From a virus (taxonomy: Duplodnaviria > Caudoviricetes): a stretch of DNA of 62,391 bases. The notes below the pieces were generated by a model, which was not told the origin of the DNA, ran no database searches, and was given only the letters and a program-made list of their open reading frames with translations. A program made the position numbers and the translations under genes. The stretch covers positions 1 to 62,391 of the IMG/VR virus record IMGVR_UViG_3300025392_000672, one strand, 5' to 3'. This document shows, piece by piece, positions 20,952 to 60,845 of this stretch (its first letter is position 1; every line of letters starts with the position of its first letter).

Positions 20952-21155
20952 ATGGCAATTTTAAGAGGGCAATCACACCCATCGGCAAAGCTTACTGACG
21001 AGCAGGTACTTGCTATTAGAGACTTATGGAAAATGGGTCATCGTAATATCAAAGTAATAGCTCGTAACAATAAGGTATCACCATCAAATGTATTGAAGAT
21101 AGTTCAAAGAAAAACTTGGACACACTTAAATCAATTTTGGTCTGGTAGCTTATGA
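20952..21155 (+). CDS. Small HTH-type DNA-binding protein
   Basis: GQSHPSAKLTDEQV..IR...IA....VS...V..I...KTWTHL resembles the C-terminal HTH of phage HNH endonucleases. Its stop overlaps the next ATG (ATGA). Confidence 0.6.
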   Translation: MAILRGQSHPSAKLTDEQVLAIRDLWKMGHRNIKVIARNNKVSPSNVLKIVQRKTWTHLNQFWSGSL

Positions 21156-21925
21156 AAGTAGAAGGTAAACAATATTGTGACATCTCTAAATTTTCAGTTA
21201 GAGAAATTAATAAAAGCATCGCAAAGGATATCATTGTCAATAACCATTACAGTGGGATATGGACGAAGGTATCCTATGCTTTGGGTTTATTTTATATATC
21301 CGATGATGAGCATTCATTCTTTAGTGGGGTGAATGAACAATTGGTTGGAGTTGCCTGTTATGGTGACCCGGTTGGTAGAAATGCCGGCGCATCAATTTCC
21401 GAATTACTTCCTAGAGATGGTGTATTGGAATTAACACGACTATTTGTATTCGATGGATATGGTAGTAACATTGAGAGTTGGTTTGTTGCACAAACTTTTG
21501 AATGGTTAAGAACTAATGTACCTCGTATAAAAGCACTTATATCTTATTCAGACCCAAACGCTGGGCACTTAGGTACGGTATATCAAGCTACCAATTGGAT
21601 ATATCAGGGTAACAAAATCAGATGGTCGGATAGTTGGTCTTTCAAATGGAGTGAAGATGATGAATGGCATCATTCTCGGACTTCTTATGTGAAGTACGGA
21701 ACGAATGACCCGAAGATAATTCAGACAATGGTTACAAGCCCATTCTGGATTAAAAGAGAACCCCGTAAGCACCGATATGTGTATATTCTAACCAAAGATA
21801 AGAAGGAACGTAAAGCCCTCTTAAAATCGCTTAAACATGAGGTCTTCCCATATCCAAAGGTGGAACTCGATATAATTGATGAGGTGCATAAAATGGACCC
21901 GATAAATTTGGTGGATTCGAATTAA
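21152..21925 (+). CDS. Mom-like GNAT DNA-modification enzyme, paralogue 1
   Basis: HYS, GVACYG, LELTRL, ESWFV, ISYSD..AGHLGTVYQATNWIYQG and KHRYVY follow the motif order of phage Mu Mom-family proteins. Confidence 0.75.
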   Translation: MKVEGKQYCDISKFSVREINKSIAKDIIVNNHYSGIWTKVSYALGLFYISDDEHSFFSGVNEQLVGVACYGDPVGRNAGASISELLPRDGVLELTRLFVFDGYGSNIESWFVAQTFEWLRTNVPRIKALISYSDPNAGHLGTVYQATNWIYQGNKIRWSDSWSFKWSEDDEWHHSRTSYVKYGTNDPKIIQTMVTSPFWIKREPRKHRYVYILTKDKKERKALLKSLKHEVFPYPKVELDIIDEVHKMDPINLVDSN

Positions 21926-21952: not shown

Positions 21953-22837
21953 ATGTCACAAGTTTGGGTATTCTCTAAACATACTGAATCGGAGTTTGAA
22001 AACAAAAGATTGTTGGAAAGCTTTGAGAAAAAAGGAATTGATGCAAAAATAGTTCAACCTGATAATTTTGATATTATTGTTGATAAACATATTGCAGAGG
22101 GTATTTTATATAGTGGAGAATCGATAGAACTACCAAAAATTGTATTAGTAAGAACTGGAAGTGGTACTAATGATTTTATGTTAGCATTATTAAGACAATT
22201 AGAAAAAGCAGGAGTATTATGTATTAATTCAGCTGACCCAATTGAAAAGGTTGCTGATAAATTACAAGCTTCTCAAATACTTTCACAACACAATATTCCT
22301 ATTCCAAATACAATGGTGGTTAAGTACCCTGTTGATGAGAGTATTGTAAAAGATAGAATTGGATTTCCTTGTGTGGTAAAAGTTGTAACCGGAAGTTATG
22401 GTAAAGGAGTTTATCTTTGTGAAAAAAGGAGAGACTTTAGTAAGTTGATGGAATTTATTAGAAGTTTAGGTACATCAAAAACCCTAATCGTTCAGGAATA
22501 TTTAGGATTAAAACCTGGTGAAGATTTAAGAGTATTAGTTATTGGTGGTAAAGTTATTGGGGCAATGAAAAGAATTGGACCCGATGGTGATTTTAGAGCA
22601 AACATAACTAATGGTGGGACAGGTGAGAAATTTGAATTGACAGATGAGATTGATTTTATAGCAAGAGAAACTGCAAGAGTATTAAATTTACATATAGCAG
22701 GAGTGGATTTATTATTTGATGAAAGAGGATTTAGAGTATGTGAAGCAAATTCAGCACCTGGCTTTAAAGGATTTGAAACTTATTGTGACGTTAATGTTGC
22801 AGATTTAATAGCAGATTATATATCATATAAATTATAA
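21953..22837 (+). CDS. RimK/LysX-family ATP-grasp amino-acid ligase
   Basis: ADKL, IPIPNT, FPCVVK..GSYGKGV, IVQEY, DLRVLVIGG, FRANITNGG, AGVDLL, CEANSAPGF. Confidence 0.9.
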   Translation: MSQVWVFSKHTESEFENKRLLESFEKKGIDAKIVQPDNFDIIVDKHIAEGILYSGESIELPKIVLVRTGSGTNDFMLALLRQLEKAGVLCINSADPIEKVADKLQASQILSQHNIPIPNTMVVKYPVDESIVKDRIGFPCVVKVVTGSYGKGVYLCEKRRDFSKLMEFIRSLGTSKTLIVQEYLGLKPGEDLRVLVIGGKVIGAMKRIGPDGDFRANITNGGTGEKFELTDEIDFIARETARVLNLHIAGVDLLFDERGFRVCEANSAPGFKGFETYCDVNVADLIADYISYKL

Positions 22838-23278: not shown

Positions 23279-24079
23279 ATGAAAGAAGAAGGTAAACAAT
23301 ATTGCGATGTATCTAAAGTATATGTTGCACCGATTGCAAAAAATATAGCTAAAGATATTATTGTAACAAAACACTATACGCATGCTTGGACTTCATGTCG
23401 TTATGCATTGGGTATTTATTACAAAGCAGAAGATGCTTTAACATTTGATGGAGATAAACTTATAGGTTGTTTAATCTATGGTTTTCCTGTTGGGGCAAAA
23501 GCAGCAACTTCTGTTTGTGAAGGATTGACTAAAGATAACATTTTAGAATTGACTCGTTTGTATTGTGATGATGGGTATGGTTCTAATATTGAATCGTATG
23601 CAATCTCACAATCTTTTAAATGGTTAAAAGAAAATGATAAAGCAATTAAGTTATTGTTATCATATGCAGATGCTGGACAACAACACTTAGGAGCAATTTA
23701 CCAAGCAACCAATTGGATTTATCAAGGTATTTCATCGGATATTGCATTGATGCCAAACTGGGGTATATCATTGCAAGAAAATCCTTATAAGTGGATTCAT
23801 AGTAGAACTGTATTTAGTAAATGGGGTAGTGGTAACTTAGAACATTTAAAGAATGAAATTGGTAAGGAAGGTTATCAATACTTTTGGAGAAGAATGGAGC
23901 CACCAAAGCATAGATATGTACAATTACTTCCGCAAGATAAAAAAGAAAGAAAATCCCTAATGAAAGCTTTAAAACATCCAATTAGACCTTATCCAAAATC
24001 GGCTACGGATTTCAATACCGAAGTAGTAAGACATGAAACCAATTATGTAGCACCTATTGGAGATGAGAACTATTGGTAG
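23279..24079 (+). CDS. Mom-like GNAT DNA-modification enzyme, paralogue 2
   Basis: HYT, LELTRL, GYGSNIES, LSYAD...HLGAIYQATNWIYQG, KHRYV; collinear with 21152..21925. Confidence 0.75.
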   Translation: MKEEGKQYCDVSKVYVAPIAKNIAKDIIVTKHYTHAWTSCRYALGIYYKAEDALTFDGDKLIGCLIYGFPVGAKAATSVCEGLTKDNILELTRLYCDDGYGSNIESYAISQSFKWLKENDKAIKLLLSYADAGQQHLGAIYQATNWIYQGISSDIALMPNWGISLQENPYKWIHSRTVFSKWGSGNLEHLKNEIGKEGYQYFWRRMEPPKHRYVQLLPQDKKERKSLMKALKHPIRPYPKSATDFNTEVVRHETNYVAPIGDENYW

Positions 24080-24082
24080 TAT

Positions 24083-24109
24083 ATAACTCATTGATAATCA
24101 ATAACTTAT
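24083..24109. promoter_or_regulatory. 27-bp palindromic operator-like element (single copy)
   Basis: ATAACTCATTGA-TAA-TCAATAACTTAT; same family as the arrays at 58383 and 60767. Confidence 0.65.
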
Positions 24110-24127
24110 AAAAAATCCCTCAAAATG

Positions 24128-24159
24128 TTTGGCAAATTGGGGGATTTTTCGTATCTTTG
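24128..24159 (+). promoter_or_regulatory. Bacteroidota-type promoter embedded in a terminator-like hairpin
   Basis: TTTG-N20-TATCTTTG; the hairpin AAAAATCCCTCAA...TTGGGGGATTTTT (24111-24149) encloses the TTTG. Confidence 0.7.
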
Positions 24160-24186
24160 AGTATTATAAAATATAAAATACATTAA

Positions 24187-25401
24187 ATGGCTAAAACAAA
24201 AAATACTAAACAAAAAATTGAGTTTAAGTACACAGAAAGAAATGGTAAAATGTTTGTACATCCATCTGAATTAAAACCAAATCCATTAAATATAGAAATA
24301 TATTCTAACAAAGAAGAAGAAACAAAAACTCAAGAAGATATTGCTAAATCTTTTAAAGATAGAATAGAAAATGGACAAGAACCAAATGTACAATCTGTTA
24401 TTGTTTATCCAGATGGATTAATTGATGCGGGTCATACTAGATGGAAAGCAGCAAAATTAGCTAATTGTGAAATTTGGGTTACACTATCAGATTCCCCATA
24501 TCCGGATATTAAAAACAAACCATACTCAGCATTAGAGCAAGTTACATCAACAAACAAATATCGTAAAATTACACCATCAGTTAAACTAAATGAATTTGAA
24601 GCAAAAAATAAAGCTTACGCTTTAGAATTTGGTAAAGCGAGAAGTAGAAAGGATGAAGATGTTCATTTAAAAGATATGTCCATAGCAAGAGATACTATGG
24701 AAAAACTGCAAGAAATTAAATCAAATAGAGCAGATTTACTTCCTCTTATTGATAGCGGTGAATATACTGTTAAAGCAGCACATGATGAAGCAACTGGTAA
24801 GAATAAAGTTAAGGTTGTAAAATCAAATAATCCTGATAGAGACTGGAGTGAAATATATACTACTAATGTATTCAAAATTATTATGAATAGAGTAGCTAAT
24901 GTAATAGCTCAAATGAAAGATATTAGTTACAAATTAAATGGTGAAGATATCAATCCATTTAATGATTTTGTTAAAGCTGCAGTTACTGCAAATATATCTT
25001 GGACAATGGAAAGTATAGGAGCAGAAGTTTTACGAGGAGAAGGATATGATGTTAGATGTGCTAGTGGACACCCAACAGACCCCGATATTTATCACAATGA
25101 TATTGATGATAAAGTTGAAATTAAAGTTACTAACTTTGATGCAGCTAACACAAAATGGAAAGGAGGACAAGGTATTAGAGAAGGACAATATATATTAGTT
25201 GCATATGATGAACAAATTGAAAGATGGCTAGTTATATTTACAAAATTAACAGCTAAGGATTGGAAATCAGCTGGTCAAGCGGGTCATATATTACCTATTA
25301 AAAATGTATATGATAACCATAAAAAGGATATGCAGATTGTATATGGTGAAATTTATCAATCTAATGGTAAATTACAAGTTCAATTGGAAAAATTAAAATA
25401 A
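24187..25401 (+). CDS. ParB/Srx-like N-terminal domain fused to a PD-(D/E)xK nuclease-like domain
   Basis: LKPNPLNIEIY...LIDAGHTRWKAA (ParB-like); C-terminal E...DPDIY.....KVEIKVT (PD-(D/E)xK). Confidence 0.65.
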   Translation: MAKTKNTKQKIEFKYTERNGKMFVHPSELKPNPLNIEIYSNKEEETKTQEDIAKSFKDRIENGQEPNVQSVIVYPDGLIDAGHTRWKAAKLANCEIWVTLSDSPYPDIKNKPYSALEQVTSTNKYRKITPSVKLNEFEAKNKAYALEFGKARSRKDEDVHLKDMSIARDTMEKLQEIKSNRADLLPLIDSGEYTVKAAHDEATGKNKVKVVKSNNPDRDWSEIYTTNVFKIIMNRVANVIAQMKDISYKLNGEDINPFNDFVKAAVTANISWTMESIGAEVLRGEGYDVRCASGHPTDPDIYHNDIDDKVEIKVTNFDAANTKWKGGQGIREGQYILVAYDEQIERWLVIFTKLTAKDWKSAGQAGHILPIKNVYDNHKKDMQIVYGEIYQSNGKLQVQLEKLK

Positions 25402-26516
25402 TGAATTTTTGGGATGGACAATTAAGTAAAGAAGCAAGGCGTGTTTTGGTGATACCTAATATCACCAATTCCGCTAATATAGAAAAAGATTCATTCGTAG
25501 ATGTTATCTATAATCACATTAAAGGTTTAGAGCAACACGGAGAATACTTTTGGAATATTATATTACCCGAGCCGGTTAAGAAACTGAATTTACTAAATGT
25601 AAAGCAGCATATCTTACCCTTCTCGGGCGATATGATTAAGATGCGTACCTATCCGCCGGATTTTAATAGGTTATTAGAAACATTAGAATATGATGTTATC
25701 TATTCGCATTTGCCGGATTGGCCGCAAGTTGGTAGATACAAAAACGATTTCAATACAAAAATTATTGGTTATTGTCATTGGTGGGAAATGAAAACCTGCA
25801 ATGCAGAAGATAGAAAAAATAAATGGAGATGGATGCCTATTGAACTATTAGGTATATCTCAAATGGAAACCTGCTATCTAAATACACAGGACCAAAAGAA
25901 TAGAGTATTAGAAGAAGCTAAGATTTGGTTTAATGATGAGTTTGTTAAAAAATTAGATGAAATTTTAGTAGTTTGGAATTTGGGATTACCAAAAGATAAT
26001 GTAGTAGAATCGGCATCAGATGACAAATTAAATATTATTGTATTCAATCATAGAGCAGCAGCTTATAAAGGATATCCAGCTTTTATTAAATTGATGGAAG
26101 AATATAGAGAAAGAAGGCAAGATTTTAGTGTATGGGTGCCTCAATTAAAAGGAACACCTGAACATAACTGGATTGATGCAACTAAACTTGCAAAGCATGA
26201 TTATTATAAAAGATTACAACAATGTAAAGTTGGCATTCAAATGAGGCAAACTAATTATGGTTGGAGTGTATCTGCAACCGATTGCTTAATGAATGGTACA
26301 CCAATGATATATCAAGAATCATTATGTTATGAAGAAATAGAACCAAACGGATTGTTTTTTAAATTTAAAAAAGACCTGTTTGAAATGTTAGATAATATTT
26401 TGGATGACGATAATTATAGAAGGGATAGAGAGATTAAAAGTATAGCTAGAGCATTAGAACTTTCTGAAAATGAAGGAAAGATGTTAAATCAATTAAACAT
26501 AAAATTAAAAGTATAG
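25401..26516 (+). CDS. GT-B fold glycosyltransferase (candidate DNA glycosyltransferase)
   Basis: YDVIYSH, IVFNHRAAAYKGY, YGWSVSATDCLMNGTPMI; stop abuts the polB ATG. Confidence 0.7.
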   Translation: MNFWDGQLSKEARRVLVIPNITNSANIEKDSFVDVIYNHIKGLEQHGEYFWNIILPEPVKKLNLLNVKQHILPFSGDMIKMRTYPPDFNRLLETLEYDVIYSHLPDWPQVGRYKNDFNTKIIGYCHWWEMKTCNAEDRKNKWRWMPIELLGISQMETCYLNTQDQKNRVLEEAKIWFNDEFVKKLDEILVVWNLGLPKDNVVESASDDKLNIIVFNHRAAAYKGYPAFIKLMEEYRERRQDFSVWVPQLKGTPEHNWIDATKLAKHDYYKRLQQCKVGIQMRQTNYGWSVSATDCLMNGTPMIYQESLCYEEIEPNGLFFKFKKDLFEMLDNILDDDNYRRDREIKSIARALELSENEGKMLNQLNIKLKV

Positions 26517-29039
26517 ATGTATCAAAATATATATTTTCAGAGAGAAAAGAATTTAATCCATTTATGGGATGATAAATTATCATATCGTACATTTCCGTAC
26601 ACTAGATATGCATATGAAAAAGCAGAGAGAGGTCAATATACTTCATTGTATGGTGATAAGTTAGATAAGATTTTTAAATTCAGTAAAGATGACCCAAATT
26701 TATTTGAATCAGATGTTGCTGAAACTACAAGAGTATTAGTTGATACATATACTGATTCTGATATTCCATCGGAAGGACATGTTATTCTAACATACGATAT
26801 TGAGTGTGAAATGGATACGGGATTGCCTGATGTTGAGAAATCTGAAAATGAATTAACAGCCATAGGTTTGCATGATTCTGCTTCTGACCATTATTGGGTT
26901 TTAATTATGGATAAAGCTGGCAAGATGAGTGAGAAGAAGACCGGCAATCGTACTGTAATTCCTTTTAGAGATGAGAGGGATATGTGTATGAAGTATTTAG
27001 AATTATATGAGTATATCAATCCAACAATCGTAACGGGTTGGAATATTGATAACTTTGATACTCCTTATTTATATAATCGTATTAAAAGACTATTAGGCGT
27101 TAAGCACGCTAATAGGCTAAGCCCAATAGGTGAATGTTTTTGGTCTCCATATCGTAAGAGATTCTATATGGCCGGCGTATCTTATTTAGACTACCTTGCT
27201 CTATATAAGAACTTCACCTATTCGGAATTAGATAACTATCGTTTGGATAGTATTGCGATGAAGGAATTGGGTAGAGGTAAAGTTGAGTATAAAGGTTCAT
27301 TGGATGATTTGTTTGTTAGAGATATTGAAAAGTTCATTGAGTATAACTTAGTGGACGTTCAATTAGTTGTTGATATGGATACAAAATTACAATTCATTGA
27401 TACCGCAAGAGGTATTTGTCACGCTGGGCATGTACCTTATGAAGATTTTGTTTATTCATCAAAATACTTAGAGGGTGCATTACTTTGTTACCTTAAGAGA
27501 AGAAATATTGTAGCTCCTAACAAACCTGCGGATAGACAAGAAAGAATGCAAGCACTTAGAGATAACGATGAAGAAAAATTCATTGGGGCATATGTTAAAG
27601 CACCTATCGTTGGTAAGTACGAATGGATATATGACTTGGATTTAACTTCACTATACCCATCAATCATTATGACAACTAATATTTCACCAGAAACTAAAGT
27701 TGGTAAGATTGATAATTGGGATGCACAAAAGTTTATGAAGGGTGAGATTGATACATTCTTTTTAGGAGATAAAAGTATTTCAAAAGAAAACCTTAAGAAG
27801 TTATTGGATGAAAGTAAATACGCTATATCATCTAACGGAGTTCTTTACACTACTGATAAGGTAGGTTGTATTCCTGATATCTTAGACTTGTGGTTTAAAC
27901 AAAGGGTTGAGTTCAGAGCTTTGGAAAAAAAGTATGGTGAGAGTGGTGATAAAGAAAAATATGCATTCTATAAGAAAAGACAGTTGGTACAAAAAATCTT
28001 ATTGAACTCTTTATATGGAGTATTGGGATTGCCGGCTTTCCGTTTCTATGATGTAGATAACGCTGAGGCTGTAACAACAACAGGTCAGACCGTGATTAAA
28101 TCAACGGCGGATATGGCTAACATTAAATACAATAAAGAGTTAGGAACTAAAGGAGAAGATTTTAACATATACATTGATACGGATTCGGTATTCTTTTCAG
28201 CAGTACCTATCTTAGACCATAGACATACTGATTGGAGAAAATTGCCTGATGCTGAAATTGCATTATTGGTGGATAATATAGCTGGTGAAACGCAAGACTT
28301 CTTAAATAAATTCTATGATGTATTGGCTGAGAAAGTATTCAATGTAGATAAATCAAAACACCGATTCCAAATTAAAAAAGAGTTTGTAAGTAGAAGTGGT
28401 ATTTGGATTGCTAAGAAACGATACGCTCAATGGATTATTGCAGAGAATGGTATTCCTTGTGATACATTGCAAGTTAAAGGATTAGACGTGGTTCGTTCAT
28501 CATATCCAGCTGAGTTCCGTAAATTTATGAGTGGTGTTCTTATTGATATTCTTAAAGGTGAAAACGAAACAACATTAACTGATAAGATATATGATTTTAA
28601 GAAATCCTTATCAACAATGGATGTGGTTAGTATAGCTAAAAACTCAGCAGTAAAGGAAATATCAAAATACATTCCAAAGAAAAAAGATAATAGAGCAATG
28701 TTCCAATTTAATAGTGGAACGCCGGCTCACGTTAAAGCAGCAATTGCACATAATCAATTGTTAGTTCACTTTAAATGTTCCGCTAAGCACGCTCCAATGA
28801 GAGATGGTGATAAGGTTAAGTGGGTATATCTAAAACAAAACCCATACGGATTGGATGCGGTAGCATTTAAGGGTTATGAAGACCCGGATGAGATAATGGA
28901 TTTAGTAAAAACTTATATCGATTATGACAAGATTTTTGAGAGAGAATTACTTAAGAAATTAGAGGATTTTTACGGAGCATTGGGTTGGGGAGCTGTACTA
29001 TCATCACAAAAGACTGCAGAACAATTCTTCGCATTTTAA
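26517..29039 (+). CDS. Family B DNA polymerase (gp43-like)
   Basis: Exonuclease YDIE, TGWNIDNFD, YNLVD; polymerase DLTSLYPS, KILLNSLYG, YIDTDS, KKRY, KGLD. Confidence 0.96.
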   Translation: MYQNIYFQREKNLIHLWDDKLSYRTFPYTRYAYEKAERGQYTSLYGDKLDKIFKFSKDDPNLFESDVAETTRVLVDTYTDSDIPSEGHVILTYDIECEMDTGLPDVEKSENELTAIGLHDSASDHYWVLIMDKAGKMSEKKTGNRTVIPFRDERDMCMKYLELYEYINPTIVTGWNIDNFDTPYLYNRIKRLLGVKHANRLSPIGECFWSPYRKRFYMAGVSYLDYLALYKNFTYSELDNYRLDSIAMKELGRGKVEYKGSLDDLFVRDIEKFIEYNLVDVQLVVDMDTKLQFIDTARGICHAGHVPYEDFVYSSKYLEGALLCYLKRRNIVAPNKPADRQERMQALRDNDEEKFIGAYVKAPIVGKYEWIYDLDLTSLYPSIIMTTNISPETKVGKIDNWDAQKFMKGEIDTFFLGDKSISKENLKKLLDESKYAISSNGVLYTTDKVGCIPDILDLWFKQRVEFRALEKKYGESGDKEKYAFYKKRQLVQKILLNSLYGVLGLPAFRFYDVDNAEAVTTTGQTVIKSTADMANIKYNKELGTKGEDFNIYIDTDSVFFSAVPILDHRHTDWRKLPDAEIALLVDNIAGETQDFLNKFYDVLAEKVFNVDKSKHRFQIKKEFVSRSGIWIAKKRYAQWIIAENGIPCDTLQVKGLDVVRSSYPAEFRKFMSGVLIDILKGENETTLTDKIYDFKKSLSTMDVVSIAKNSAVKEISKYIPKKKDNRAMFQFNSGTPAHVKAAIAHNQLLVHFKCSAKHAPMRDGDKVKWVYLKQNPYGLDAVAFKGYEDPDEIMDLVKTYIDYDKIFERELLKKLEDFYGALGWGAVLSSQKTAEQFFAF

Positions 29040-29071
29040 TTTGGTAGAATCAGATATTTTTCGTATATTTG
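29040..29071 (+). promoter_or_regulatory. Bacteroidota-type promoter
   Basis: TTTG-N20-TATATTTG upstream of the clamp gene. Confidence 0.75.
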
Positions 29072-29988: not shown

Positions 29989-31200
29989 ATGAGCTTTTGG
30001 GATACTGAACCACAAAAACCTGTCTTTGACTTTGAATCTGAAAAAGCAAAGTTAAAAGAAAATATGGACTATTTGATGACAATGTCTGTGCAAGAACAAA
30101 CACTATATAAAAAGTGGGTGGAGTTGCAAGAACCATCAATGATTCAGGCTAAAGCCCAAATAGCATCTTATTATGATTCCCAATGGAAACCAACTGATAT
30201 CAACAATAAGGAGCTAACGATAAAAGAAATTGAAGCGTTAGACCCTTATGTTGAGATTGTTGATGACCCTAAGGAATCTACTAAATGGGCAGCGGTAAGA
30301 CGTATGATTCATACAATGGATTTTACAGCAAACCCTGGTCGTAATGTAAAGATTAATGTAAAAGATAGAGTAAGTGGAAAACTATTAGGACAAATTTCAT
30401 TAGCATCAGATGTTACTGCTATGGGAGTTAGAGATAACTACATTGGTTGGACTAAGGATAATAAATTTGTTGATGGTAAGTTAAACAACACTACTATCGC
30501 TTCTACTATTGTATGTACTCAACCATTGGGTTATAACTTCTTAGGTGGTAAGTTAATCGCTATGATGACAACTGTGCCTGAAGTTAGGGAATATTGGAAA
30601 TCAAAATATAAAAATGTTTTGATTGCAGTAGGTACTACTTCTTTGTATGGTATCCACTCTCAATACAATGGTATTCCATTATTTAAAACTTTAGGAGAAT
30701 CGGCCGGTAAGATTAGTTTAAAGCCGGATGATAAATTCTATGACCCTTGGCATCAATGGATTAAAGAAAATAGAGCTGAATGGTATAAACAAAATATATC
30801 AGATGAAAGAGCTCGTAATGGTGCTAATATGGGATATGAAGCTAACGGACCTGTTAGTGGTATTAAACAAAAAATATTAAGTGCTATCTTTAAAGAGTGT
30901 GGTATTAAGGCAACCGAATATCATCACGGATTTAAAAGAGGAGTTTATATGGCTATGATGTATGAAAATGGATGTGAGTTCTTAAGAAACGAAATCACCG
31001 AAGATAAACTAATCCTTAAAGATAAATTTAAGCAAGGTACTGAATACATTAATAAATGGTGGAAGAAACATGCAATCAGTAGATACACAAAATTACATGA
31101 AGAAGGTAGATTAAAACCTGAACATTTATTCTATATTGATGCCATTGGTATTAGTTGGGAAGAGATGAAAGCAAAGTATTTAGCAGAAGTGGGAAGATAA
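29989..31200 (+). CDS. DUF4338 (Druantia DruA-like) protein
   Basis: PGRN, GKLLGQISLASD, RDNYIGW, QPLGYNFLGGKLIA, TTSLYG..SQYN, LGESAG resemble DUF4338-family proteins of T4-like phages. Confidence 0.65.
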   Translation: MSFWDTEPQKPVFDFESEKAKLKENMDYLMTMSVQEQTLYKKWVELQEPSMIQAKAQIASYYDSQWKPTDINNKELTIKEIEALDPYVEIVDDPKESTKWAAVRRMIHTMDFTANPGRNVKINVKDRVSGKLLGQISLASDVTAMGVRDNYIGWTKDNKFVDGKLNNTTIASTIVCTQPLGYNFLGGKLIAMMTTVPEVREYWKSKYKNVLIAVGTTSLYGIHSQYNGIPLFKTLGESAGKISLKPDDKFYDPWHQWIKENRAEWYKQNISDERARNGANMGYEANGPVSGIKQKILSAIFKECGIKATEYHHGFKRGVYMAMMYENGCEFLRNEITEDKLILKDKFKQGTEYINKWWKKHAISRYTKLHEEGRLKPEHLFYIDAIGISWEEMKAKYLAEVGR

Positions 31201-34553: not shown

Positions 34554-34585
34554 TTTGGTAAACTCGGTTATTTTTCGTATCTTTA
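34554..34585 (+). promoter_or_regulatory. Bacteroidota-type promoter
   Basis: TTTG-N20-TATCTTTA. Confidence 0.7.
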
Positions 34586-34599
34586 CATAAATAAACATA

Positions 34600-35472
34600 A
34601 TGGCAAAAGTATCATTTTCGCAGTACTCAATGTGGAGTAGCTGCCCGCATCAATATAAGTTAAATTACATAGATAAATTAGGTGAAAGTTCATCTAATAT
34701 ACATACAATATTCGGAACTGCTATGCATGAAACTATTCAACATTACTTATCGGTGATGTATGGTGTTTCTAAAAAGCAAGCAGATGAAATCAACAAAGAT
34801 AAATTGTTGTTAGAACGAATGAGAGAAGCTTACAAAGGTGAAGCTGAAAAAATGAGTGAAGGAACTCCTTGTACTCAAATTGAATTAGAAGAATTTTATG
34901 GTGATGGTAGAAGAATTTTAGCATGGTTGGATAAACACATGCACAAATTCTATTCAAAGAGCGGATTTGAATTAGTAGGTATTGAAATTCCATTGAATAA
35001 GGAAGTTAAAAACGGAGTTCATTTTATAGGATTTATAGATATCGTATTAAGAGATGTTTCAGCTAATGAAATTATTATCATAGATTTAAAGACTTCAACT
35101 ATGGGTTGGAATCAATATCAGAAAGCTGATAAGATGAAGAACTCTCAAATTCTTCTTTATAAAAAATACTATTCGGAATTATTCAATATTCCAATGCAAA
35201 AAATTAGAGTAGAATATCAAATCCTTCGTAGAAAATTACCCGAAGATTCTGCATTTCCAATTCCGCATGTATCTAAGCATGTTCCTGCACATGGAGGACC
35301 ATCCGTTAATAGAGTATATGATGAGTTTATGCAATTCATAGATACTGTATTTGATGATGAAGGAAAATATAGAGATATAGAATTTCCCAAAGTACCAGGT
35401 CCAGCAAAAAAGAATTGTAAGTTTTGTGAATTTGGGAATAGAGGAATATGTGATAAAAAGGCTACAAAATAA
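34600..35472 (+). CDS. Cas4/RecB-like PD-(D/E)xK exonuclease
   Basis: SFSQ....CP, GTAMH, GFIDIV, IIDLKT, QILLY; C-terminal CKFC......C (1+3 Cys Fe-S pattern). Confidence 0.85.
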   Translation: MAKVSFSQYSMWSSCPHQYKLNYIDKLGESSSNIHTIFGTAMHETIQHYLSVMYGVSKKQADEINKDKLLLERMREAYKGEAEKMSEGTPCTQIELEEFYGDGRRILAWLDKHMHKFYSKSGFELVGIEIPLNKEVKNGVHFIGFIDIVLRDVSANEIIIIDLKTSTMGWNQYQKADKMKNSQILLYKKYYSELFNIPMQKIRVEYQILRRKLPEDSAFPIPHVSKHVPAHGGPSVNRVYDEFMQFIDTVFDDEGKYRDIEFPKVPGPAKKNCKFCEFGNRGICDKKATK

Positions 35473-35488
35473 ATTTTATGTTTTCTTG

Positions 35489-35519
35489 AAAACTTTATAT
35501 TTATATATACAAATATATT
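35489..35519. repeat. 31-bp exact repeat, copy 1 (near-palindromic core)
   Basis: AAAACTTTATATTTATATATACAAATATATT, identical at 40887-40917. Confidence 0.8.
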
Positions 35520-35523
35520 TATA

Positions 35524-35724
35524 ATGAATCAAGACAACACAAAATTAACTACTGTGAAAATACTGAAAGATGTATATTCAAGTTTCAAAAAAGTTTCTTT
35601 CGATTCGGATGTTACACTTCAAAAGCTGGTTAATAGAACAGTGGAAAGATATGTTAAAGACGATGAGTTTAGAAAAGAAATGAACGAATACTTAGAACTA
35701 CAAATTTCAGGTTCACAATTTTAA
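35524..35724 (+). CDS. Small ribbon-helix-helix-like regulator
   Basis: KLTTVKI strand followed by two helices (KDVYSSFKKV; TLQKLVNRTVERYV). Confidence 0.55.
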   Translation: MNQDNTKLTTVKILKDVYSSFKKVSFDSDVTLQKLVNRTVERYVKDDEFRKEMNEYLELQISGSQF

Positions 35725-35739
35725 CAACGAAAATAAGTT

Positions 35740-37122
35740 ATGGCAAAAAAGAAGATTCTGTTATTATCAGATGACTTAAGAATGGCAAGTGGTATCGCCA
35801 CAATGTCAAAAGAATTAGTACTAGGTACTATACACAAATACGATTGGTTTCAAGTGGGAGCCGCAATTAATCACCCAGAGCAAGGTAAAGTTTTAGATGT
35901 AAGTGAGGATATCCGTACAAACTATGGTATTCCAGATGCTAATTTAAAAATACTTCCTTGGAATGGATATGGTAATGCTGATTTAATTAGACAATTAATT
36001 AACGCTGAACAACCTGATGCTATCTTACACTTTACTGACCCTCGTTATTGGACATGGTTGTATGATATTGAGCATGAGATAAGACAAAATGTTCCTATTT
36101 TATTCTACGCAATTTGGGATGATTTACCAGACCCATTATATAATCGTAACTACTATGAAAGTTGTGATTGGATTGGTTGTATTTCTCGCCAAACATACGG
36201 TATCATTAAAAGATTATCTGCATTAGATACTAAACCAACATGGAAGCCTAAAGCAGATTGGCAGGTTGATTATGTACCACATGGTATTAATACTGATATT
36301 TACAAACCAGCGGATGTATCTGACGAATTTAGAAAAGAAATTTTAGGTGGTAAAGATTATGATTTTATTCTTTATTGGAGTAATCGTAATATTAGAAGAA
36401 AACAACCAGCTGATGTTATTGTAGCATTCAAAAGATTTTGTGATAATATTGGTAAAGAAAAAGCTGATAAAGTATGTTTATTAATGCACACTCAGCCGAT
36501 AGATGAAAATGGTACGGATTTACCTGCAGTAATAGCAGCAGTAGCTCCTGATGTTAATATTATATTTTCGGAAAAAAGAAGACCAGTTGAAGAATTAAAT
36601 CTTCTATATAATATCGCTGATGTAACAATCAACATTGCTAACAACGAAGGATTTGGATTGGCAACTGCAGAATCGGTAATGGCTGGAACACCAATCATTG
36701 TAAATGTAACTGGTGGATTACAAGACCAATGTGGATTTGAAGTTGATGGTAAATTATTAACAGCAGAAGATTATATTGATTTAGGTTCTTTACATGAGTG
36801 GAGAAAATGGGAAGGTAAGGCAATAGCTGGCGATTGGGCAACACCAATTTGGAGTAGAGCACAATCATTAGCAGGTTCAGTACCAACTCCATATATTTGG
36901 GATGATAGAGTAGATGTTGATGATGTTGCAGCTGCAATTGAAAAAGTTTACAATACATCTAAAGAAGATAGAAAAGCAGCTGGATTGAAAGGTAGAGAAG
37001 CATTTATAAATGATATGGGATTAACACATACAAATATGTGTCAGCAATTAGTAAATGGAATTGAATCAACATTTGAAAATTGGAAACCAAGACAAAGATG
37101 GGAGTGTTTTAAAATTAAATAA
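35740..37122 (+). CDS. GT-B (GT4-like) glycosyltransferase
   Basis: YVPHGIN, NRNIRRKQ, LYNIADV, NEGFGLATAESVMAGTPII..TGGL.DQ. Confidence 0.88.
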   Translation: MAKKKILLLSDDLRMASGIATMSKELVLGTIHKYDWFQVGAAINHPEQGKVLDVSEDIRTNYGIPDANLKILPWNGYGNADLIRQLINAEQPDAILHFTDPRYWTWLYDIEHEIRQNVPILFYAIWDDLPDPLYNRNYYESCDWIGCISRQTYGIIKRLSALDTKPTWKPKADWQVDYVPHGINTDIYKPADVSDEFRKEILGGKDYDFILYWSNRNIRRKQPADVIVAFKRFCDNIGKEKADKVCLLMHTQPIDENGTDLPAVIAAVAPDVNIIFSEKRRPVEELNLLYNIADVTINIANNEGFGLATAESVMAGTPIIVNVTGGLQDQCGFEVDGKLLTAEDYIDLGSLHEWRKWEGKAIAGDWATPIWSRAQSLAGSVPTPYIWDDRVDVDDVAAAIEKVYNTSKEDRKAAGLKGREAFINDMGLTHTNMCQQLVNGIESTFENWKPRQRWECFKIK

Positions 37123-37128
37123 TAAGTT

Positions 37129-38433
37129 ATGAATAAGCCAACATTAGTATTTCAAGGACCTATATTCACTCGTAGTGGTTACGGTGACCATTGTAGAGAT
37201 TTAATGAAATCCCTACGAAAGATGGATAAGTATGATATTAAAATTATACCTTTAAGATGGGGTAACACTCCGCAAAATCAAGTAGACCCATCAACCGATT
37301 TTGGTAAATGGATGCTAAGTAGAGTGATTACCGAAGTTACTGAAAAACCAGATGTATTTATGCAAGTTTCAGTAGCAAATGAATTTGAACCAAAAGGACA
37401 CTACAATATTGGTGTAACTGCTGGTGTTGAAACTACAATTTGTCCTAAAGATTTTATTGATGGTGGTAACAAAATGGATTTAATCATTGTTCCATCTGAA
37501 TTTACTAAACAAGTAATGACAACTACGGCTTATCAACAAAAAGATACGCAAAGTGGTCAAATACTTTCAGAAATTCGTTTAACAACACCTGTTGAAGTTT
37601 TATTTGAAGGAGTTGATACTGATGTATTTGAATCATCAGTTTCATCTAAAAACAATATAGATATCTTAGAAAATGTAAAAGAAGATTTTAACTTTTTAAT
37701 TGTAGGACATTGGTTGAAGGGAAGTTTAGGACAAGATAGAAAAGATATTGGTATGGCTATTAGAACATTGGCAACGGTATTCCAATATCTACCAGCGGAT
37801 AAAAGACCTGGTATTATTGTTAAAACATCGCATGCCGGATTTAGTGTGATAGATAGAGAGGGTACTAGAGAAAAAATTGATAGTGTATTAGCAGCATTTG
37901 GCGATAAGTGTCCATCTGTTTATTTGATACATGGAGATATGGAAGAAAGAGATATGAGTAACTTATACCATCACCCTAAAGTTAAAGCAATGGTATCATT
38001 TGCTAAAGGTGAGGGATATGGTAGACCAATGGCTGAATTTACTTTGACAGGTAAACCAATTATAGCTAGTGGTTGGAGCGGACAAATGGATTTTTTACCA
38101 CCGGATAACGCAGTTTTATTAGAAGGGTCTTTAACACAGGTTGATGAATCGGCAGCTGACCAATTTTGTATGAAAGAAGCTCAATGGTTTACTGTAAATT
38201 ATTCAGCAGCAGCTAATAAGTTATATGATGTTTACAACAAATATGATACTTATATTAGTAAATCAAAAGGTTTAAGAGAAAATACCTTACAAAACTTTAC
38301 ATTAGATAAAATGCATGAGGTGTTTATTAAATTAATGGAAACAAATGTTAAAGAACAACCAAAATTAGTTCCTTTTAATATTCCTAAATTGAATAGTTCT
38401 AAAATGCAGATTCCTAAGCTAAACAAAGTATAA
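37129..38433 (+). CDS. GT-B (GT4-like) glycosyltransferase
   Basis: SGYG, IIVPSEF, DRKDIG, GEGYGRPMAEF...GKPIIASGWSG..DFL. Confidence 0.88.
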   Translation: MNKPTLVFQGPIFTRSGYGDHCRDLMKSLRKMDKYDIKIIPLRWGNTPQNQVDPSTDFGKWMLSRVITEVTEKPDVFMQVSVANEFEPKGHYNIGVTAGVETTICPKDFIDGGNKMDLIIVPSEFTKQVMTTTAYQQKDTQSGQILSEIRLTTPVEVLFEGVDTDVFESSVSSKNNIDILENVKEDFNFLIVGHWLKGSLGQDRKDIGMAIRTLATVFQYLPADKRPGIIVKTSHAGFSVIDREGTREKIDSVLAAFGDKCPSVYLIHGDMEERDMSNLYHHPKVKAMVSFAKGEGYGRPMAEFTLTGKPIIASGWSGQMDFLPPDNAVLLEGSLTQVDESAADQFCMKEAQWFTVNYSAAANKLYDVYNKYDTYISKSKGLRENTLQNFTLDKMHEVFIKLMETNVKEQPKLVPFNIPKLNSSKMQIPKLNKV

Positions 38434-38988: not shown

Positions 38989-40821
38989 ATGGCAATAGTA
39001 AAAAGAATTACAAAAGGTTCTCCGATTACAGCAACGGAGATGGATGGGAATTTAACAATTTTAGAAACCGCATCAAGCTCACTTAATGTAATTGCGGGCG
39101 AACTTAATACATTATCCGCATCTTACGCAACAAACACTACCTTAACTGGTACTTTAAATGGTACTTTTACAGGTAGTGTTTTCATTTCAGGTAGTAATAC
39201 TACATTACAATTTGACAACATAGCAACTGACAATTCTACAAATGAATTTTTAGTTTATAATCCATCAACCAAAATAGTTGGAATAACCACAAATGTTTCT
39301 GGTACTTCTGGTACAAGTGGACATGATGGTACATTCTTTGGTAGCAGTGGTACAAGTGGACATGATGGTACATTCTTTGGTAGCAGTGGTACAAGTGGAC
39401 ATGATGGCACATCGGGAACATCTGGAGCAGGTACATCTGGTACAAGCGGTACATCTGGAACAAGTGCCACATCGGGAACTTCAGGAACACATGGTTCATC
39501 GGGAACTTCTGGAATAAATGGTTCATCGGGAACTTCTGGAACAAGCGGTAGTAGTGGTGTAAATGGAAGTAGTGGCACATCTGCAACTTCTGGAACAAGT
39601 GGTACATCTGCAACTTCTGGTACAAGCGGTGTAAGTGGAAGTAGTGGTACTTCTGGAGCAAATGGTGATAAATTTGCATCAACTTCATCAACATCAATGA
39701 CAATTGGTTCTAGTGGTACTAGAAGTTTTACAATAGGAACTGGATTACAATGGACTCCAGCGCAAGAAATGTTAATATCATTTGATGCAAATGATTATAT
39801 GTTAGGCACAGTAACTTCATATAATAGTGGAACTGGAGCTGTATCTGTAAATTTAATATCATCTGTTGGTAGTGGTACATATATTTCTTGGAATATTAAT
39901 ACAATAGGAGCTCCTGGTCAAGCGGGTAGTGGTGGTACTTCTGGAACAAGCGGAAGTAGTGGTGTTAATGGTAGTAGTGGAGCAACGGGTTCATCCGGTT
40001 CTGCGGGTTCATCGGGCTCAACAGGTTCATCCGGCTCATCTGGAACATCAGGAGTTTCTGGAACAAGCGGTTCTTCTGGTAGTAATGGAATATCTGGCAC
40101 AAATGGTAGTGGTGGTACATCAGGTGTATCTGCTATTCCAATACCGGGAACAAGCGGAAGTGGTGGCACATCGGGAACTTCTGGAACATCTGGTTCGGGA
40201 ACATCTGGTACAAGCGGTTCGCATGGTACATCTGGAACATCCGGTCTAACTGGTTCAAGTGGTCCTGCTGGTGCAAATGGTTCATCTGGTACAAGTGGTG
40301 TGAGTGGTATCAAAGGAGCTGATGGTTCATCGGGTACATCTGGTACAAATGGTACAAGCGGAGTTGGTATAAATGGTACATCAGGAACTTCTGGTATTAG
40401 TGGAAATCCTGGTACATCTGGATTGAATGGAACAAATGGTACATCTGGTGTATCTGGTACAAGTGGCGTAGCTGGACAAGCAGGTTCTTCTGGAACAAGC
40501 GGAAGTAGTGGAGTATCTGCGCCAGCAGGAACTTCAGGAACTTCCGGTTCATCCGGTTTAAATGGTACATATAGCGTTAGTGGAACAACAATAGGTGGTG
40601 TGGTTACATTATCTAGCGCACTTCCAACGGCATTTGCATCAAATGCTACACTTACTTTTAATGGTGGGATATTAGCAAATACAGGCGTTAGTAGTTCTTT
40701 ACAATTTTCTCAATTAAGTGTGTTACCACCAACGGGCGGATTGATATCAACTAGTGTTTTAGCAGTATCTGGTTCGCATTTATACTTCTATAATGGAAGT
40801 AGTTGGGTTCAAGTAATTTAA
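38989..40821 (+). CDS. Gly-Ser-Thr triplet-repeat (collagen-like) fibre/virion surface protein
   Basis: Long (G-T/S-S)n tracts; N-terminal KGSPITATEMDGN virion-anchor-like motif; central beta domain; C-terminal LYFYNGSSW. Confidence 0.75.
   Translation: MAIVKRITKGSPITATEMDGNLTILETASSSLNVIAGELNTLSASYATNTTLTGTLNGTFTGSVFISGSNTTLQFDNIATDNSTNEFLVYNPSTKIVGITTNVSGTSGTSGHDGTFFGSSGTSGHDGTFFGSSGTSGHDGTSGTSGAGTSGTSGTSGTSATSGTSGTHGSSGTSGINGSSGTSGTSGSSGVNGSSGTSATSGTSGTSATSGTSGVSGSSGTSGANGDKFASTSSTSMTIGSSGTRSFTIGTGLQWTPAQEMLISFDANDYMLGTVTSYNSGTGAVSVNLISSVGSGTYISWNINTIGAPGQAGSGGTSGTSGSSGVNGSSGATGSSGSAGSSGSTGSSGSSGTSGVSGTSGSSGSNGISGTNGSGGTSGVSAIPIPGTSGSGGTSGTSGTSGSGTSGTSGSHGTSGTSGLTGSSGPAGANGSSGTSGVSGIKGADGSSGTSGTNGTSGVGINGTSGTSGISGNPGTSGLNGTNGTSGVSGTSGVAGQAGSSGTSGSSGVSAPAGTSGTSGSSGLNGTYSVSGTTIGGVVTLSSALPTAFASNATLTFNGGILANTGVSSSLQFSQLSVLPPTGGLISTSVLAVSGSHLYFYNGSSWVQVI
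39310..39407 (+). repeat. 39-bp tandem repeat, 2.5 copies (GTSGHDGTFFGSS)
   Basis: GGTACAAGTGGACATGATGGTACATTCTTTGGTAGCAGT at 39310 and 39349, partial at 39388. Confidence 0.9.
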
Positions 40822-40840
40822 TAACTTAAATTAAAAATAT

Positions 40841-40874
40841 AAATGGGTAGTTTAAAAAAAGCTACCCATTTTTT
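40841..40874 (+). terminator. Intrinsic terminator after the fibre gene
   Basis: AAATGGGTAGT...GCTACCCATTT followed by a T run. Confidence 0.75.
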
Positions 40875-40886
40875 GTGTTTTATCTA

Positions 40887-40917
40887 AAAACTTTATATTT
40901 ATATATACAAATATATT
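40887..40917. repeat. 31-bp exact repeat, copy 2
   Basis: Identical to 35489-35519; lies just upstream of the promoter at 40929. Confidence 0.8.
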
Positions 40918-40928
40918 ATTACACTTTA

Positions 40929-40960
40929 TTTGGTAAACTCAAAATAAAATCGTATATTTG
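40929..40960 (+). promoter_or_regulatory. Bacteroidota-type promoter for the glycan operon
   Basis: TTTG-N20-TATATTTG. Confidence 0.75.
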
Positions 40961-40976
40961 TAATAATTAAAAAGTT

Positions 40977-41609
40977 ATGGTGAATATTACTTACGCAATT
41001 ACGGTTTGTAACGAATTAGAAGAAATTACAAAACTAATCAATTTCTTACAACCAAGAATAGAATCGGATGATGAGATTCTAATACAATACGATTCAAATT
41101 CGGCAACTAGAGAAGTTACTGATTATCTTAGAATCCTTTCTCAATTACATAATTCAAATATCAAAGTTATTGAGTTTCCACTTAATAACGATTTTGCTTC
41201 TTTTAAGAATAATTTAAAAGATAATGCAAGTGGTATTTTTATTTTCCAAATTGATGCAGATGAAATACCATCTGAATATTTAGTAACTAATTTGCATGAA
41301 TTATTAGATTACAATAAAGATGTAGATTTATTCTTTGTACCTAGAGTTAATACCGTTGAAGGATTAACAAAAGAGCATATCCAAAAGTGGAGATGGCAAG
41401 TTAATGATAAGGGGTGGGTAAACTTTCCTGATTATCAAACTCGTTTATATAGAAGAACATCTGAAATTCGTTGGGAAGGTAAAGTACATGAAAGAATTGT
41501 AGGATATAATACATTATCAGTATTACCGCAAGAAGAAGATTTTTGTTTGTATCATCCAAAACAAATAGAAAGACAAGAAAAACAAAACGCATTTTATGAT
41601 ACAATCTAA
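40977..41609 (+). CDS. GT2-family glycosyltransferase
   Basis: ITVCNE, DFASFKN, IFQIDADE, PDYQTRLY, WEGKVHE. Confidence 0.88.
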   Translation: MVNITYAITVCNELEEITKLINFLQPRIESDDEILIQYDSNSATREVTDYLRILSQLHNSNIKVIEFPLNNDFASFKNNLKDNASGIFIFQIDADEIPSEYLVTNLHELLDYNKDVDLFFVPRVNTVEGLTKEHIQKWRWQVNDKGWVNFPDYQTRLYRRTSEIRWEGKVHERIVGYNTLSVLPQEEDFCLYHPKQIERQEKQNAFYDTI

Positions 41610-45498: not shown

Positions 45499-45501
45499 AT
45501 T

Positions 45502-47539: not shown

Positions 47540-47540
47540 T

Positions 47541-58382: not shown

Positions 58383-58474
58383 ATAACTGGTTGATTTTCA
58401 ACACATTAGTATAACTCATTGATTTTCAATGGGTTATATTTTTGCTCATAACTCGTTGATTTTCAACCATTTAA
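58383..58474. repeat. Three copies of a 27-bp palindrome (ATAACnnnTTGA-NNN-TCAAnnnnTTAT) upstream of the vWA gene
   Basis: Copies at 58383, 58411 (ATAACTCATTGA-TTT-TCAATGGGTTAT) and 58448. Confidence 0.85.
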
Positions 58475-60766: not shown

Positions 60767-60845
60767 ATAACGTGTTGATAATCAATGAGTTATAACTGGT
60801 TCAAAATCAATCAGTTGCATAACTCATTGATTCTCAATAAAAAAT
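60767..60845. repeat. Three copies of the 27-bp palindrome upstream of the AAA+ gene
   Basis: Copies at 60767 (ATAACGTGTTGA-TAA-TCAATGAGTTAT), 60792 and 60819. Confidence 0.85.

Follow-up and report, generated by a model that had tools for sequence, protein, structure and literature searches.

A gene that joins a ParB-type fold to a nuclease domain of the type II restriction endonuclease (REase) kind was analysed in the IMG/VR record IMGVR_UViG_3300025392_000672 (Caudoviricetes), studied as one strand of 62,391 nt that is called the window here. The gene is an open reading frame (ORF) of 404 aa at 24187..25401 on the + strand, directly ahead of genes for a glycosyltransferase (GT) and a family B DNA polymerase (PolB). 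We tentatively propose, with a probability of about 40%, that its product is a nuclease of genetic conflict that is gated by a nucleoside triphosphate (NTP) and that would spare the modified DNA of the phage itself. An earlier interpretation, made without database searches and referred to below as the sequence-only reading, had placed the start of this gene at 24083. That position is the start of an upstream palindrome, and the ORF begins at 24187.

In the mechanism that we envisage, a cutting domain with the PD-(D/E)xK fold of type II restriction enzymes would act as a DNA endonuclease under the control of an N-terminal ParB/Srx nucleotide switch and a ParB-like helical DNA-binding region. 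The nuclease would be made early, together with the GT and the replicative polymerase, from a recurrent sigma-70-like promoter, and its cassette sits inside a Mom/DruA/GT DNA-modification island of related aquatic T4-like phages. The Mom, DruA-like and GT enzymes would mark the phage's own DNA, which would thereby escape cutting, and the nuclease would attack DNA without these marks, either that of the host or that of co-infecting relatives.

Predicted fold of the nuclease

An AlphaFold2 model of the nuclease was built on 20 relatives and has a mean predicted local distance difference test score (pLDDT) of 87.5. Structural matches divide the model into a ParB/Srx-type nucleotide-binding-like domain (residues 20-126, nt 24244..24564, + strand), a helical middle domain like the DNA-binding region of ParB and KorB (residues ~127-207, nt 24565..24807, + strand) and a type II REase-like PD-(D/E)xK domain (residues 214-404, nt 24826..25398, + strand). 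CTP- and CDP-bound ParB, Noc and KorB superpose on residues 20-126. This stretch matches Myxococcus ParB-CDP (7bnk) with a Z score of 10.5 and a root-mean-square deviation of 2.4 Å over 90 aligned residues, and residues 19-126 match KorB-CTP with Z scores of 10.6 (8qa9) and 9.8 (8qa8). Sulfiredoxin (6ky4, Z 8.5) and a serine kinase (5x0b, Z 6.8) are further matches of the N-domain, for which Foldseek returns the ParB/Srx fold with a probability of 1.00 (E 2e-4). The likeness extends into the helical region, as residues 21-207 align with pNOB8 ParB-N (5k5d, Z 9.3, 170 aligned) and residues 21-209 with Caulobacter ParB (6t1f, Z 9.4); isolated DNA-binding domains match the middle domain weakly (6s6h, Z 4.4; 1r71, Z 4.2). 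Residues 214-404 are closest to NaeI (1iaw, Z 9.8, 154 aligned), followed by ThaI (3ndh, Z 8.5), SwaI (8.2), SfiI (7.9), EcoRV (7.0-7.4), NhoI (7.2) and DpnI (7.1).

On the predicted structure, the protein is a ParB in which a restriction-type nuclease stands in place of the C-terminal dimerisation domain. Structure prediction had been suggested in the sequence-only reading; the nuclease fold that it yields at residues 214-404, together with the ParB fold matches and the conserved motifs described below, bears out the ParB-like/PD-(D/E)xK fusion that was proposed there.

Evidence for ParB from sequence searches is weak. A Pfam scan of the window protein at E <= 0.1 produced no hit, ParB_N (PF02195) and GmrSD_N included, and DUF262 (PF03235) and DUF1524 had no match at E <= 0.1 in the window protein or in 31 relatives, two of which match PF02195 (best E 0.012). 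PADLOC and NCBIfam contained no match to the nuclease or the GT, and sequence profiles of the whole nuclease family and of the N-domain met nothing above chance level in the PDB (best E for the whole family 0.57, to an unrelated protein). The sole sequence hint of ParB in the window nuclease is PHROG 18056, 'ParB-like partition nuclease' (E 0.001). Among predicted structures, the viral protein A0A6J5MAP0 ('ParB/Sulfiredoxin') is a full-length look-alike (template modelling score 0.69-0.71, E 1e-21), and every look-alike cluster in the ESM Atlas is viral, with PF02195 on 22% of the members of one cluster.

Conservation of the pocket and the nuclease motif

Both motifs that had been read from the sequence are present. 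GHTR occupies residues 82-85 (nt 24430-24441), and the PD-(D/E)xK motif at residues 299-313 is made up of P299-D300 (nt 25081-25086) and E311-I312-K313 (nt 25117-25125), all on the + strand. In 20 relatives of 34-81% identity, G82, T84, R85, D298, D300, E311, I312 and K313 are invariant. Across 31 representatives with identity down to 18%, N123, D300, K313 and G387 are invariant, and at least 90% of them retain N35, G82, R85, S271 and E311. We equate G82, R85 and N123 with ParB boxes II and III by their position in the fold match and not by residue-level superposition. Box II reads G-[HN]-[TS]-R across the nuclease family, and GHTR in place of GERR means that the catalytic Glu of the ParB CTPases is absent; the residue roles in the CTPase boxes, the hydrolytic Glu included, are described in PMC13229309.

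Such strong conservation of the ParB-type pocket and of the nuclease triad indicates that both are under selection. We read it as pointing to a functional metal-dependent nuclease and a functional ligand pocket, and not to a decayed DNA-binding relic. One copy of the gene (locus L058, 206-1414) is split into two frames, 206-742 and 752-1414; this copy is probably broken, or it may reflect an assembly error.

Operon structure and promoter

The nuclease gene heads a three-gene unit. Its stop codon (TAA, 25399-25401) shares the last A with the start codon of the GT gene (ATG, 25401-25403), so that the TAATG overlap at 25399..25403 on the + strand that had been noted earlier is confirmed from the sequence, and it is conserved in 8 of 10 close loci. 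The GT gene ends at 26516 and the ATG of PolB follows at 26517, again as had been described. PolB, the third gene (26517..29039, + strand), is identified by Pfam DNA_pol_B (E 5e-39) and PHROG 262 (E 2e-181).

A 107-bp gap 5' of the nuclease gene contains a palindrome, a hairpin with a T run and a promoter. The predicted promoter, TTGGCA-N17-TATCTT at 24129..24157 on the + strand, agrees with the one that the sequence-only reading assigned to the unit, and it belongs to a recurrent motif. TTGGNA-N17-TATNTT occurs 10 times in the window against 0.75 expected, always on the + strand (3937, 4382, 12857, 12948, 20536, 24129, 29041, 34555, 40930 and 54340), and none of 100 shuffles reached 10; its extended consensus is about TTTGGTAnnTnnnnnnATTTTTCGTATATT. 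Read against the ORF map, 9 of the 10 copies fall in intergenic gaps, and the motif thus appears to map the early/replication transcription units of the phage. A generic sigma-70 scan of 23900-24300 was at chance level (2 found, 2.3 expected), and it is the recurrent specific motif on which we base the promoter. By eye, the window and each of the 10 close loci have T(T/G)GGNA, 17 nt and TAT(A/C)TT ahead of the gene (L011 has GTTGGTA). The -10 side is invariant in all 11 aligned rows, of which L004, L007, L008, L011 and L013 are aligned for the -10 side only. The next copy of the motif, at 29041-29069, stands just past PolB. The copies at 24129 and 29041 thus bound nuclease, GT and PolB as one unit headed by the nuclease, in line with the earlier description.

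Between the palindrome and the gene, a hairpin on the + strand (24111..24149; AAAAATCCCTCAA...TTGGGGGATTTTT, 13-nt arms with 92% complementarity) is followed by a T run and overlaps the -35 element. From its sequence it looks like a terminator-like end of the upstream Mom unit. The RNA of 24076-24190 folds at -24.8 kcal/mol (z -4.0), and none of 200 shuffles folded as well. A simple terminator scan of 23900-24300 was at chance level and did not call this hairpin, the loop of which exceeds 8 nt. Similar hairpins with altered stem bases were seen by eye in L005 and L006.

Occurrence of the family and its linkage to the GT

The window is a fragment of an uncultured T4-like phage (GC content 32%, completeness estimated at ~34%) in which all called genes lie on the + strand and include gp32-like, RecA/UvsX-like, DnaB-like, NrdAB, PolB, clamp and clamp-loader genes. 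Freshwater metagenome runs carry near-identical DNA, three of them with at least half of the sampled words, and one of these may be where the record came from. A tblastn search of 50,697 deposited phage genomes, among which records of the window's own genome may be missing, found no match to the window nuclease, to its distant relatives P0129 and P0116 or to the GT, and megablast of the nuclease region against deposited phage genomes found nothing. Public metagenomes yielded 100 homologous proteins at E <= 1.8e-56, and there are 58 representatives at 50% clustering. The nuclease family is confined to metagenomic phage sequence.

We collected 76 nuclease loci from IMG/VR and metagenomes. Of these, 58 are distinct, and 47 of the 58 are informative (at least 400 nt downstream). 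Distant loci were sought with single distant proteins as queries; P0129 yielded none. In 38 of the 47 informative loci a GT gene lies directly beside the nuclease, downstream in 35 and upstream in 3. The upstream flank, informative in 45 loci, is a Mom gene in 17 and a DruA-like gene in 9. Other neighbours include the TET-associated glycosyltransferase TAGT (PF20691; L023) and DNA N6/N4 methylases (L017, L024). In the window the nuclease lies between a Mom gene and the GT-B gene, and no cognate DNA methyltransferase adjoins it.

The GT itself (25401..26516, + strand) is a GT-B enzyme of the GT4-like kind with weak Pfam matches to Glyco_transf_4 and Glycos_transf_1. Its model has a pLDDT of 83.5, and the best Foldseek match is MshA (3c4q, E 4e-13), followed by PglA and BshA. 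A prediction of the nuclease-GT complex, run without controls, scored 0.00 against a mark of 0.32 and speaks neither for nor against binding. In the same collection the GT family was found at 557 or more loci and the nuclease at 24 confirmed loci, by pattern scans of unequal sensitivity. Distant GT orthologs (L014, L015, L017, L020, L023, L024, L026) carry an extra ~70 residues at the C terminus that the window GT is without; the pattern in this extension is conserved and, by eye, resembles a small DNA-binding domain.

An exchangeable nuclease slot upstream of the GT

The position in front of the GT was surveyed from the side of the GT. A scan with a GT alignment gave the loci of the GT family counted above, of which the best 80 were taken without de-duplication; four are contigs that also occur in the nuclease-locus set, and 73 extend far enough upstream. 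The immediate upstream neighbour of the GT in these 73 loci is DruA-like in 29, a member of a 444-aa GIY-YIG-like/ParB-like family in 21, DUF262/GmrSD_N-like in 9, a ParB-REase in 4 and a Mom in 2. Single genes occupy the position in 8 loci and comprise an HNH gene, an Endonuclease_7-like gene, a GHKL ATPase and five unknowns.

Several of these occupants share the ParB/Srx theme. The 444-aa family has no Pfam match in any of four representatives; by eye it shows an N-terminal GIY-YIG-like motif and a 'DGNHT' box, and hhalign relates it to the ParB-REase family over the ParB region with E 7.9e-4 and a probability of 25%. The DUF262-like proteins (490-580 aa) match GmrSD_N in three of three representatives at E 4e-6 to 5e-7, below the Pfam gathering score. 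A ParB/Srx-type domain with a presumed nuclease is thus found in 34 of the 73 slot genes (21 GIY-YIG-like, 9 DUF262-like and 4 ParB-REase), which suggests that the cutting chemistry is replaced around a ParB-type switch that is retained.

Exchange appears to be recent. GTs that are 92-94% identical to that of the window follow a ParB-REase, a DUF262-like gene, the 444-aa family or a 587-aa unknown gene, so near-identical GTs stand behind different nucleases. In L156 the slot is empty and the promoter lies directly in front of the GT. Between the window and L006 the nuclease is 66% identical, compared with 94% for the GT, 93% for PolB and 94% for DruA; a nuclease that diverges faster than its flanks is as expected for a conflict gene. 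The nuclease gene is one of several interchangeable nuclease cassettes between the operon promoter and the GT.

A family of palindromes

The operator-like palindrome that the sequence-only reading reported in front of the unit is present. Its length is about 29 bp and not the 27 bp given there. It is imperfect, with 14-nt arms of 86% complementarity (TATAACTCATTGAT-A-ATCAATAACTTATA, 24082..24110), and it is a member of a family. The motif ATAACNNNTTGATNNTCAA has 9 matches at 6 sites in the window, 0.13 being expected, and none of 100 shuffles reached 9. Three further copies (58383..58466) lie upstream of a 730-aa CobT-like gene (58570-60762) and two further sites (60767..60837) upstream of a CobS-like AAA+ gene (60945-62150). 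A promoter-like sequence follows a short way downstream of each site. Related loci, 589 kb in total, contain the motif solely just upstream of the nuclease gene, in 8 distinct loci.

Two observations on related loci may be added here. In a palindrome-free subclade (L004, L007, L008, L011, L013) a conserved stem-loop, GAGGTCGGAG(Y)(R)CCTC, lies ~40-60 nt 5' of the nuclease start; placed between promoter and start codon, it might act as an operator in the leader RNA. In the distant relative L030 the ParB-REase gene directly follows a CobS-like gene.

Weighing the proposed function

A restriction-like role has precedents in both of its parts. A ParB/Srx switch with a nuclease has been characterised in GmrSD, a type IV enzyme in which DUF262, an NTPase of the ParB/Srx fold, is coupled to an HNH nuclease (PMC4619093), and this provides a precedent for the architecture. 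ParB folds bind CTP, ATP or GTP and have been described in fusions with HNH and methylase domains (bioRxiv 10.1101/2025.10.10.680097). The Mom-REase fusions of jumbo phages have been predicted to be units of a modification enzyme and a REase-fold 'restriction component' (PMC7824862). The pairing of such a component with a phage modification gene, as put forward in the sequence-only reading, thus has a published precedent, itself computational.

Several findings weigh against a nuclease that spares sugar-marked DNA. The steadiest partner of the GT is the DruA-like gene and not the ParB-REase (29 against 4 of the 73 loci), and near-identical GTs accompanied by different nucleases mean that nuclease and sugar mark do not co-vary. 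The Glu with which ParB CTPases hydrolyse their nucleotide is absent, GHTR replacing GERR. Nine of the 47 informative loci have no GT beside the nuclease gene; in two of these (L003, L021) the nuclease precedes a PDDEXK_1/GT4-conflict/GT1 block that matches 34600-38433 of the window. Distant members with 22-25% identity (L030, L031) are flanked by CobS-like and Hsp20/gp45 genes, and the sequence available there contains no GT; in the complete relative G001 and in G002, ~15 kb separate a GT/DruA pair from the nuclease. There is no evident base to accept a DNA sugar, the thymidylate synthase of G001 scoring as canonical, and Tet_JBP had no match in five related records, G001 included, as it had none in any of 14 control genomes. 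The pairing of nuclease and GT that was proposed from the sequence therefore holds as an association, with the GT adjoining in 38 of 47 loci, and not as an obligate one. The restriction-modification-like system envisaged with it is supported only in part: the fusion, the operon and the GT linkage stand, but the GT is far commoner than the nuclease and near-identical GTs follow unrelated nucleases or none.

The swapping at the slot would be expected equally of selfish homing nucleases and fits them equally well. On such an account the protein would be a free-standing homing-type endonuclease, mobile between the operon promoter and the GT and spreading by cutting the cassette-free allele, with the ParB part as a DNA-binding module and the modification genes as mere neighbours. 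We consider this unlikely but a serious contender. The slot is polymorphic among close relatives and also holds small HNH and EndoVII-like genes, L156, with an empty slot, retains the promoter ahead of the GT, sequence identity shifts abruptly at the gene borders, and one copy (L058) is split. The gene also occurs elsewhere in other phages, after DNA ligase (L001), before PDDEXK_1 (L003, L021), between HAD and P-loop kinase genes (L045, L046) and after a CobS-like gene (L030), and its family is far rarer than that of the GT (24 against at least 557 loci). The pocket residues N35, G82, R85 and N123, however, are conserved as strongly as the nuclease triad, and a module for DNA binding alone would have no need of them. 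A ParB/Srx-type domain accompanies each of three unrelated nuclease chemistries in the slot, a pattern that speaks for a common functional need and not for random insertion, and 8 of 10 loci retain the stop/start overlap with the GT. DUF262-HNH proteins, moreover, are known as restriction and not as homing enzymes (PMC4619093). If the protein were a homing enzyme, it would show that ParB domains have been recruited as targeting modules.

The direct contact with the GT gene, through overlapping stop and start codons, could also mean that the protein is a ParB-type loader or activator of DNA-modifying enzymes, above all of the GT, with the REase-fold domain serving for dimerisation and DNA grip or for an entry nick. 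DpdB acts for DpdA as a partner of this loader type. A phage ParB homolog is required by the neighbouring 5mYOX to oxidise T in vivo and on double-stranded DNA in vitro (PMC13229309), and ParB-like genes have been reported next to phage DNA glycosyltransferases (bioRxiv 10.1101/2023.12.21.572611). We nonetheless hold this role to be improbable. Only 4 of the 73 GTs have a ParB-REase directly upstream, so the GT family mostly does without it and does not need it; family members exist with no GT nearby; and a pure scaffold would not require a nuclease triad that is invariant over deep divergence.

The palindromes suggest two further roles. The protein might be a KorB-like NTP-dependent regulator, or a site-specific nickase, at the palindromes ATAACnnnTTGATnnTCAA before three early promoters, where it would control the operons or cut for replication or recombination. 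KorB-CTP is among its closest structural neighbours (Z 10.6 and 9.8 for 8qa9 and 8qa8), and the palindromes form a genuine family (9 matches where 0.13 are expected), every site of which stands just upstream of a promoter, the gene's own included; 8 distinct relatives conserve the palindrome ahead of the gene. Palindromes are also the usual targets of dimers with the type II REase fold, which counts in the same direction. Against this, nothing ties the protein to the palindrome sites, other small proteins resembling helix-turn-helix (HTH) regulators are encoded nearby (for example a conserved 67-aa ORF at 20952-21155, HTH by eye), the subclade L004, L007-L013 keeps the gene and is without the palindrome, and the other two palindrome clusters precede genes unrelated to DNA modification. 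We regard this role as very unlikely.

A variant of the restriction-like proposal makes other use of the same sites and has, in our estimate, a slim chance of being correct. Here the protein is pictured as a sliding clamp of the ParB type, gated by NTP and closed by a dimer of the restriction-type nuclease. Loading would take place at the parS-like palindromes ATAACnnnTTGATnnTCAA before early promoters, and the clamp would then slide along the DNA and cut where sugar or Mom-type marks are missing. It would then be the cutting arm of a phage-borne 'scanning' restriction system, and the ParB-GIY-YIG and DUF262 genes of the slot would be alternative heads of the same machine.

Relation to known systems

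The closest parallel in architecture to the proposed conflict nuclease is with GmrSD and BrxU (DUF262 with a DUF1524 HNH domain). There, too, one polypeptide carries a ParB/Srx-fold domain and a nuclease in a context of conflict over DNA modification, and DUF262-like proteins fill the same slot in 9 of the 73 GT loci. The nuclease is of the HNH type in GmrSD and BrxU, whereas the phage protein has a PD-(D/E)xK domain and no Pfam hit to GmrSD_N. Its ParB part is closer to true ParB and KorB, the helical middle domain included, and the gene is encoded by a phage in a predicted operon with a GT and a polymerase. The ParB, Noc and KorB clamps share with it the N-domain (Z 9-10.6), the GxxR box, the Asn of box III, the helical region and the upstream palindromes; they have GERR and a C-terminal dimerisation domain where the phage protein has GHTR and a nuclease.

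The fold of residues 214-404 and the PD...(D/E)xK motif with its 10-residue spacing are those of the EcoRV/NaeI/SfiI/SwaI group. Unlike type II REases, the phage protein has a ParB module and is without sequence similarity to them, its neighbour is a GT and not a cognate methyltransferase, and its gene sits in the replication operon of a lytic phage. The free-standing homing endonucleases Seg and Mob of T4 are variable genes between conserved T4-like genes. They resemble the window nuclease in the presence/absence polymorphism of the slot between close relatives, and differ from it in catalytic fold and in the conserved ParB-type pocket of the phage protein.

Two phage systems come near in gene context. 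The pair 5mYOX176/ParB176 likewise has a phage ParB-fold protein encoded beside a post-replicative DNA-modifying enzyme (PMC13229309). ParBs of the ParB176 type keep the C-terminal dimerisation domain and are described there as being without a DNA-binding domain and a nuclease. The partner in the window, by comparison, is a GT, the nuclease domain is present, and the Tet_JBP search came back empty, as it did for the controls. The Mom-REase fusions combine a modification enzyme with a REase-fold nuclease that is proposed to act against host or superinfecting DNA (PMC7824862), and two Mom genes lie upstream in the window; the REase is fused to Mom in those proteins, whereas in the window it is a separate gene with a ParB-type switch.

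A ParB N-domain and helical domain followed by a type II REase fold would, on the predicted structure, add a third arrangement of 'ParB/Srx switch plus nuclease'. A literature search, largely without subscription journals, found no paper on a ParB-REase fusion or on this nuclease family. In a survey of ParB fusions (bioRxiv 10.1101/2025.10.10.680097) the words 'restriction' and 'PDDEXK' are absent from the main text, and the supplements may list further fusions. Pfam is blind to the ParB-REase family, which would thus have been missed by a Pfam-based survey of this kind. ParB-fold NTP switches do far more than chromosome segregation, and the GmrSD type illustrates that such a switch can drive a nuclease. 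Here a nuclease slot stands at the head of a polymerase operon in abundant uncultured freshwater and marine T4-like phages. If the nuclease does discriminate modified from unmodified DNA, resistance to cutting would be a simple read-out of the DNA modification made by the island, and the system would serve as a model for the war that phages wage with nucleases on hosts and on each other.

Other modification genes and side observations

The modification genes around the unit are all on the + strand. Two Mom-like genes (21152-21925 and 23279..24079), the second directly upstream of the nuclease unit, match Pfam Mom (PF25680; E 3e-44 and 8.5e-44 for the two). A DruA-like (DUF4338) gene lies at 29989..31200 (Pfam DruA, E 8e-19; PADLOC DruA, E 6e-16), and hhalign finds no relation between the DruA-like and Mom families (probability 0.8%). 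Counterparts of the DruA-like gene are found in L083 (6911-8209) and L084 (6920-8062). The cultured pelagiphages Mosig and HTVC008M carry the gene as well, as do 25 Synechococcus phage records, all without the GT and the nuclease. A diverged nuclease copy between CobS and Hsp20 in Mosig and HTVC008M was considered and rejected, since four profiles were silent in both 15-kb regions.

Between the two Mom-like genes the window encodes a RimK-type ATP-grasp ligase (21953-22837; Pfam E 1e-48), a relative of which was found only in L014 among 24 IMG/VR loci; this ligase might add an amino acid to an acyl mark of the Mom type. In G001 (L027, 32-1144) and G002 (L028, 232-1395) the homologs of thymidylate synthase are unusually long, at 370 and 387 aa, and match thymidylate synthase models in two to three separate stretches; they score as canonical but may have a variant chemistry.

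A second module at 34600-38433, behind its own promoter at 34555, comprises a Cas4/RecB-like PDDEXK_1 nuclease, a 'GT4-conflict' glycosyltransferase and a GT-like protein of 434 aa; in G001 and G002 the ParB-REase gene stands directly before the PDDEXK_1/GT4-conflict module. Further downstream, at 38989-51014, a collagen-repeat protein (610 aa) is followed by GT2 glycosyltransferases, a UDP-GlcNAc 2-epimerase, a GNAT protein, a DegT aminotransferase and a HAD/nucleotidyl-transferase. This is a cluster for sugar-nucleotide and glycan synthesis, which might feed the DNA-linked GTs too.

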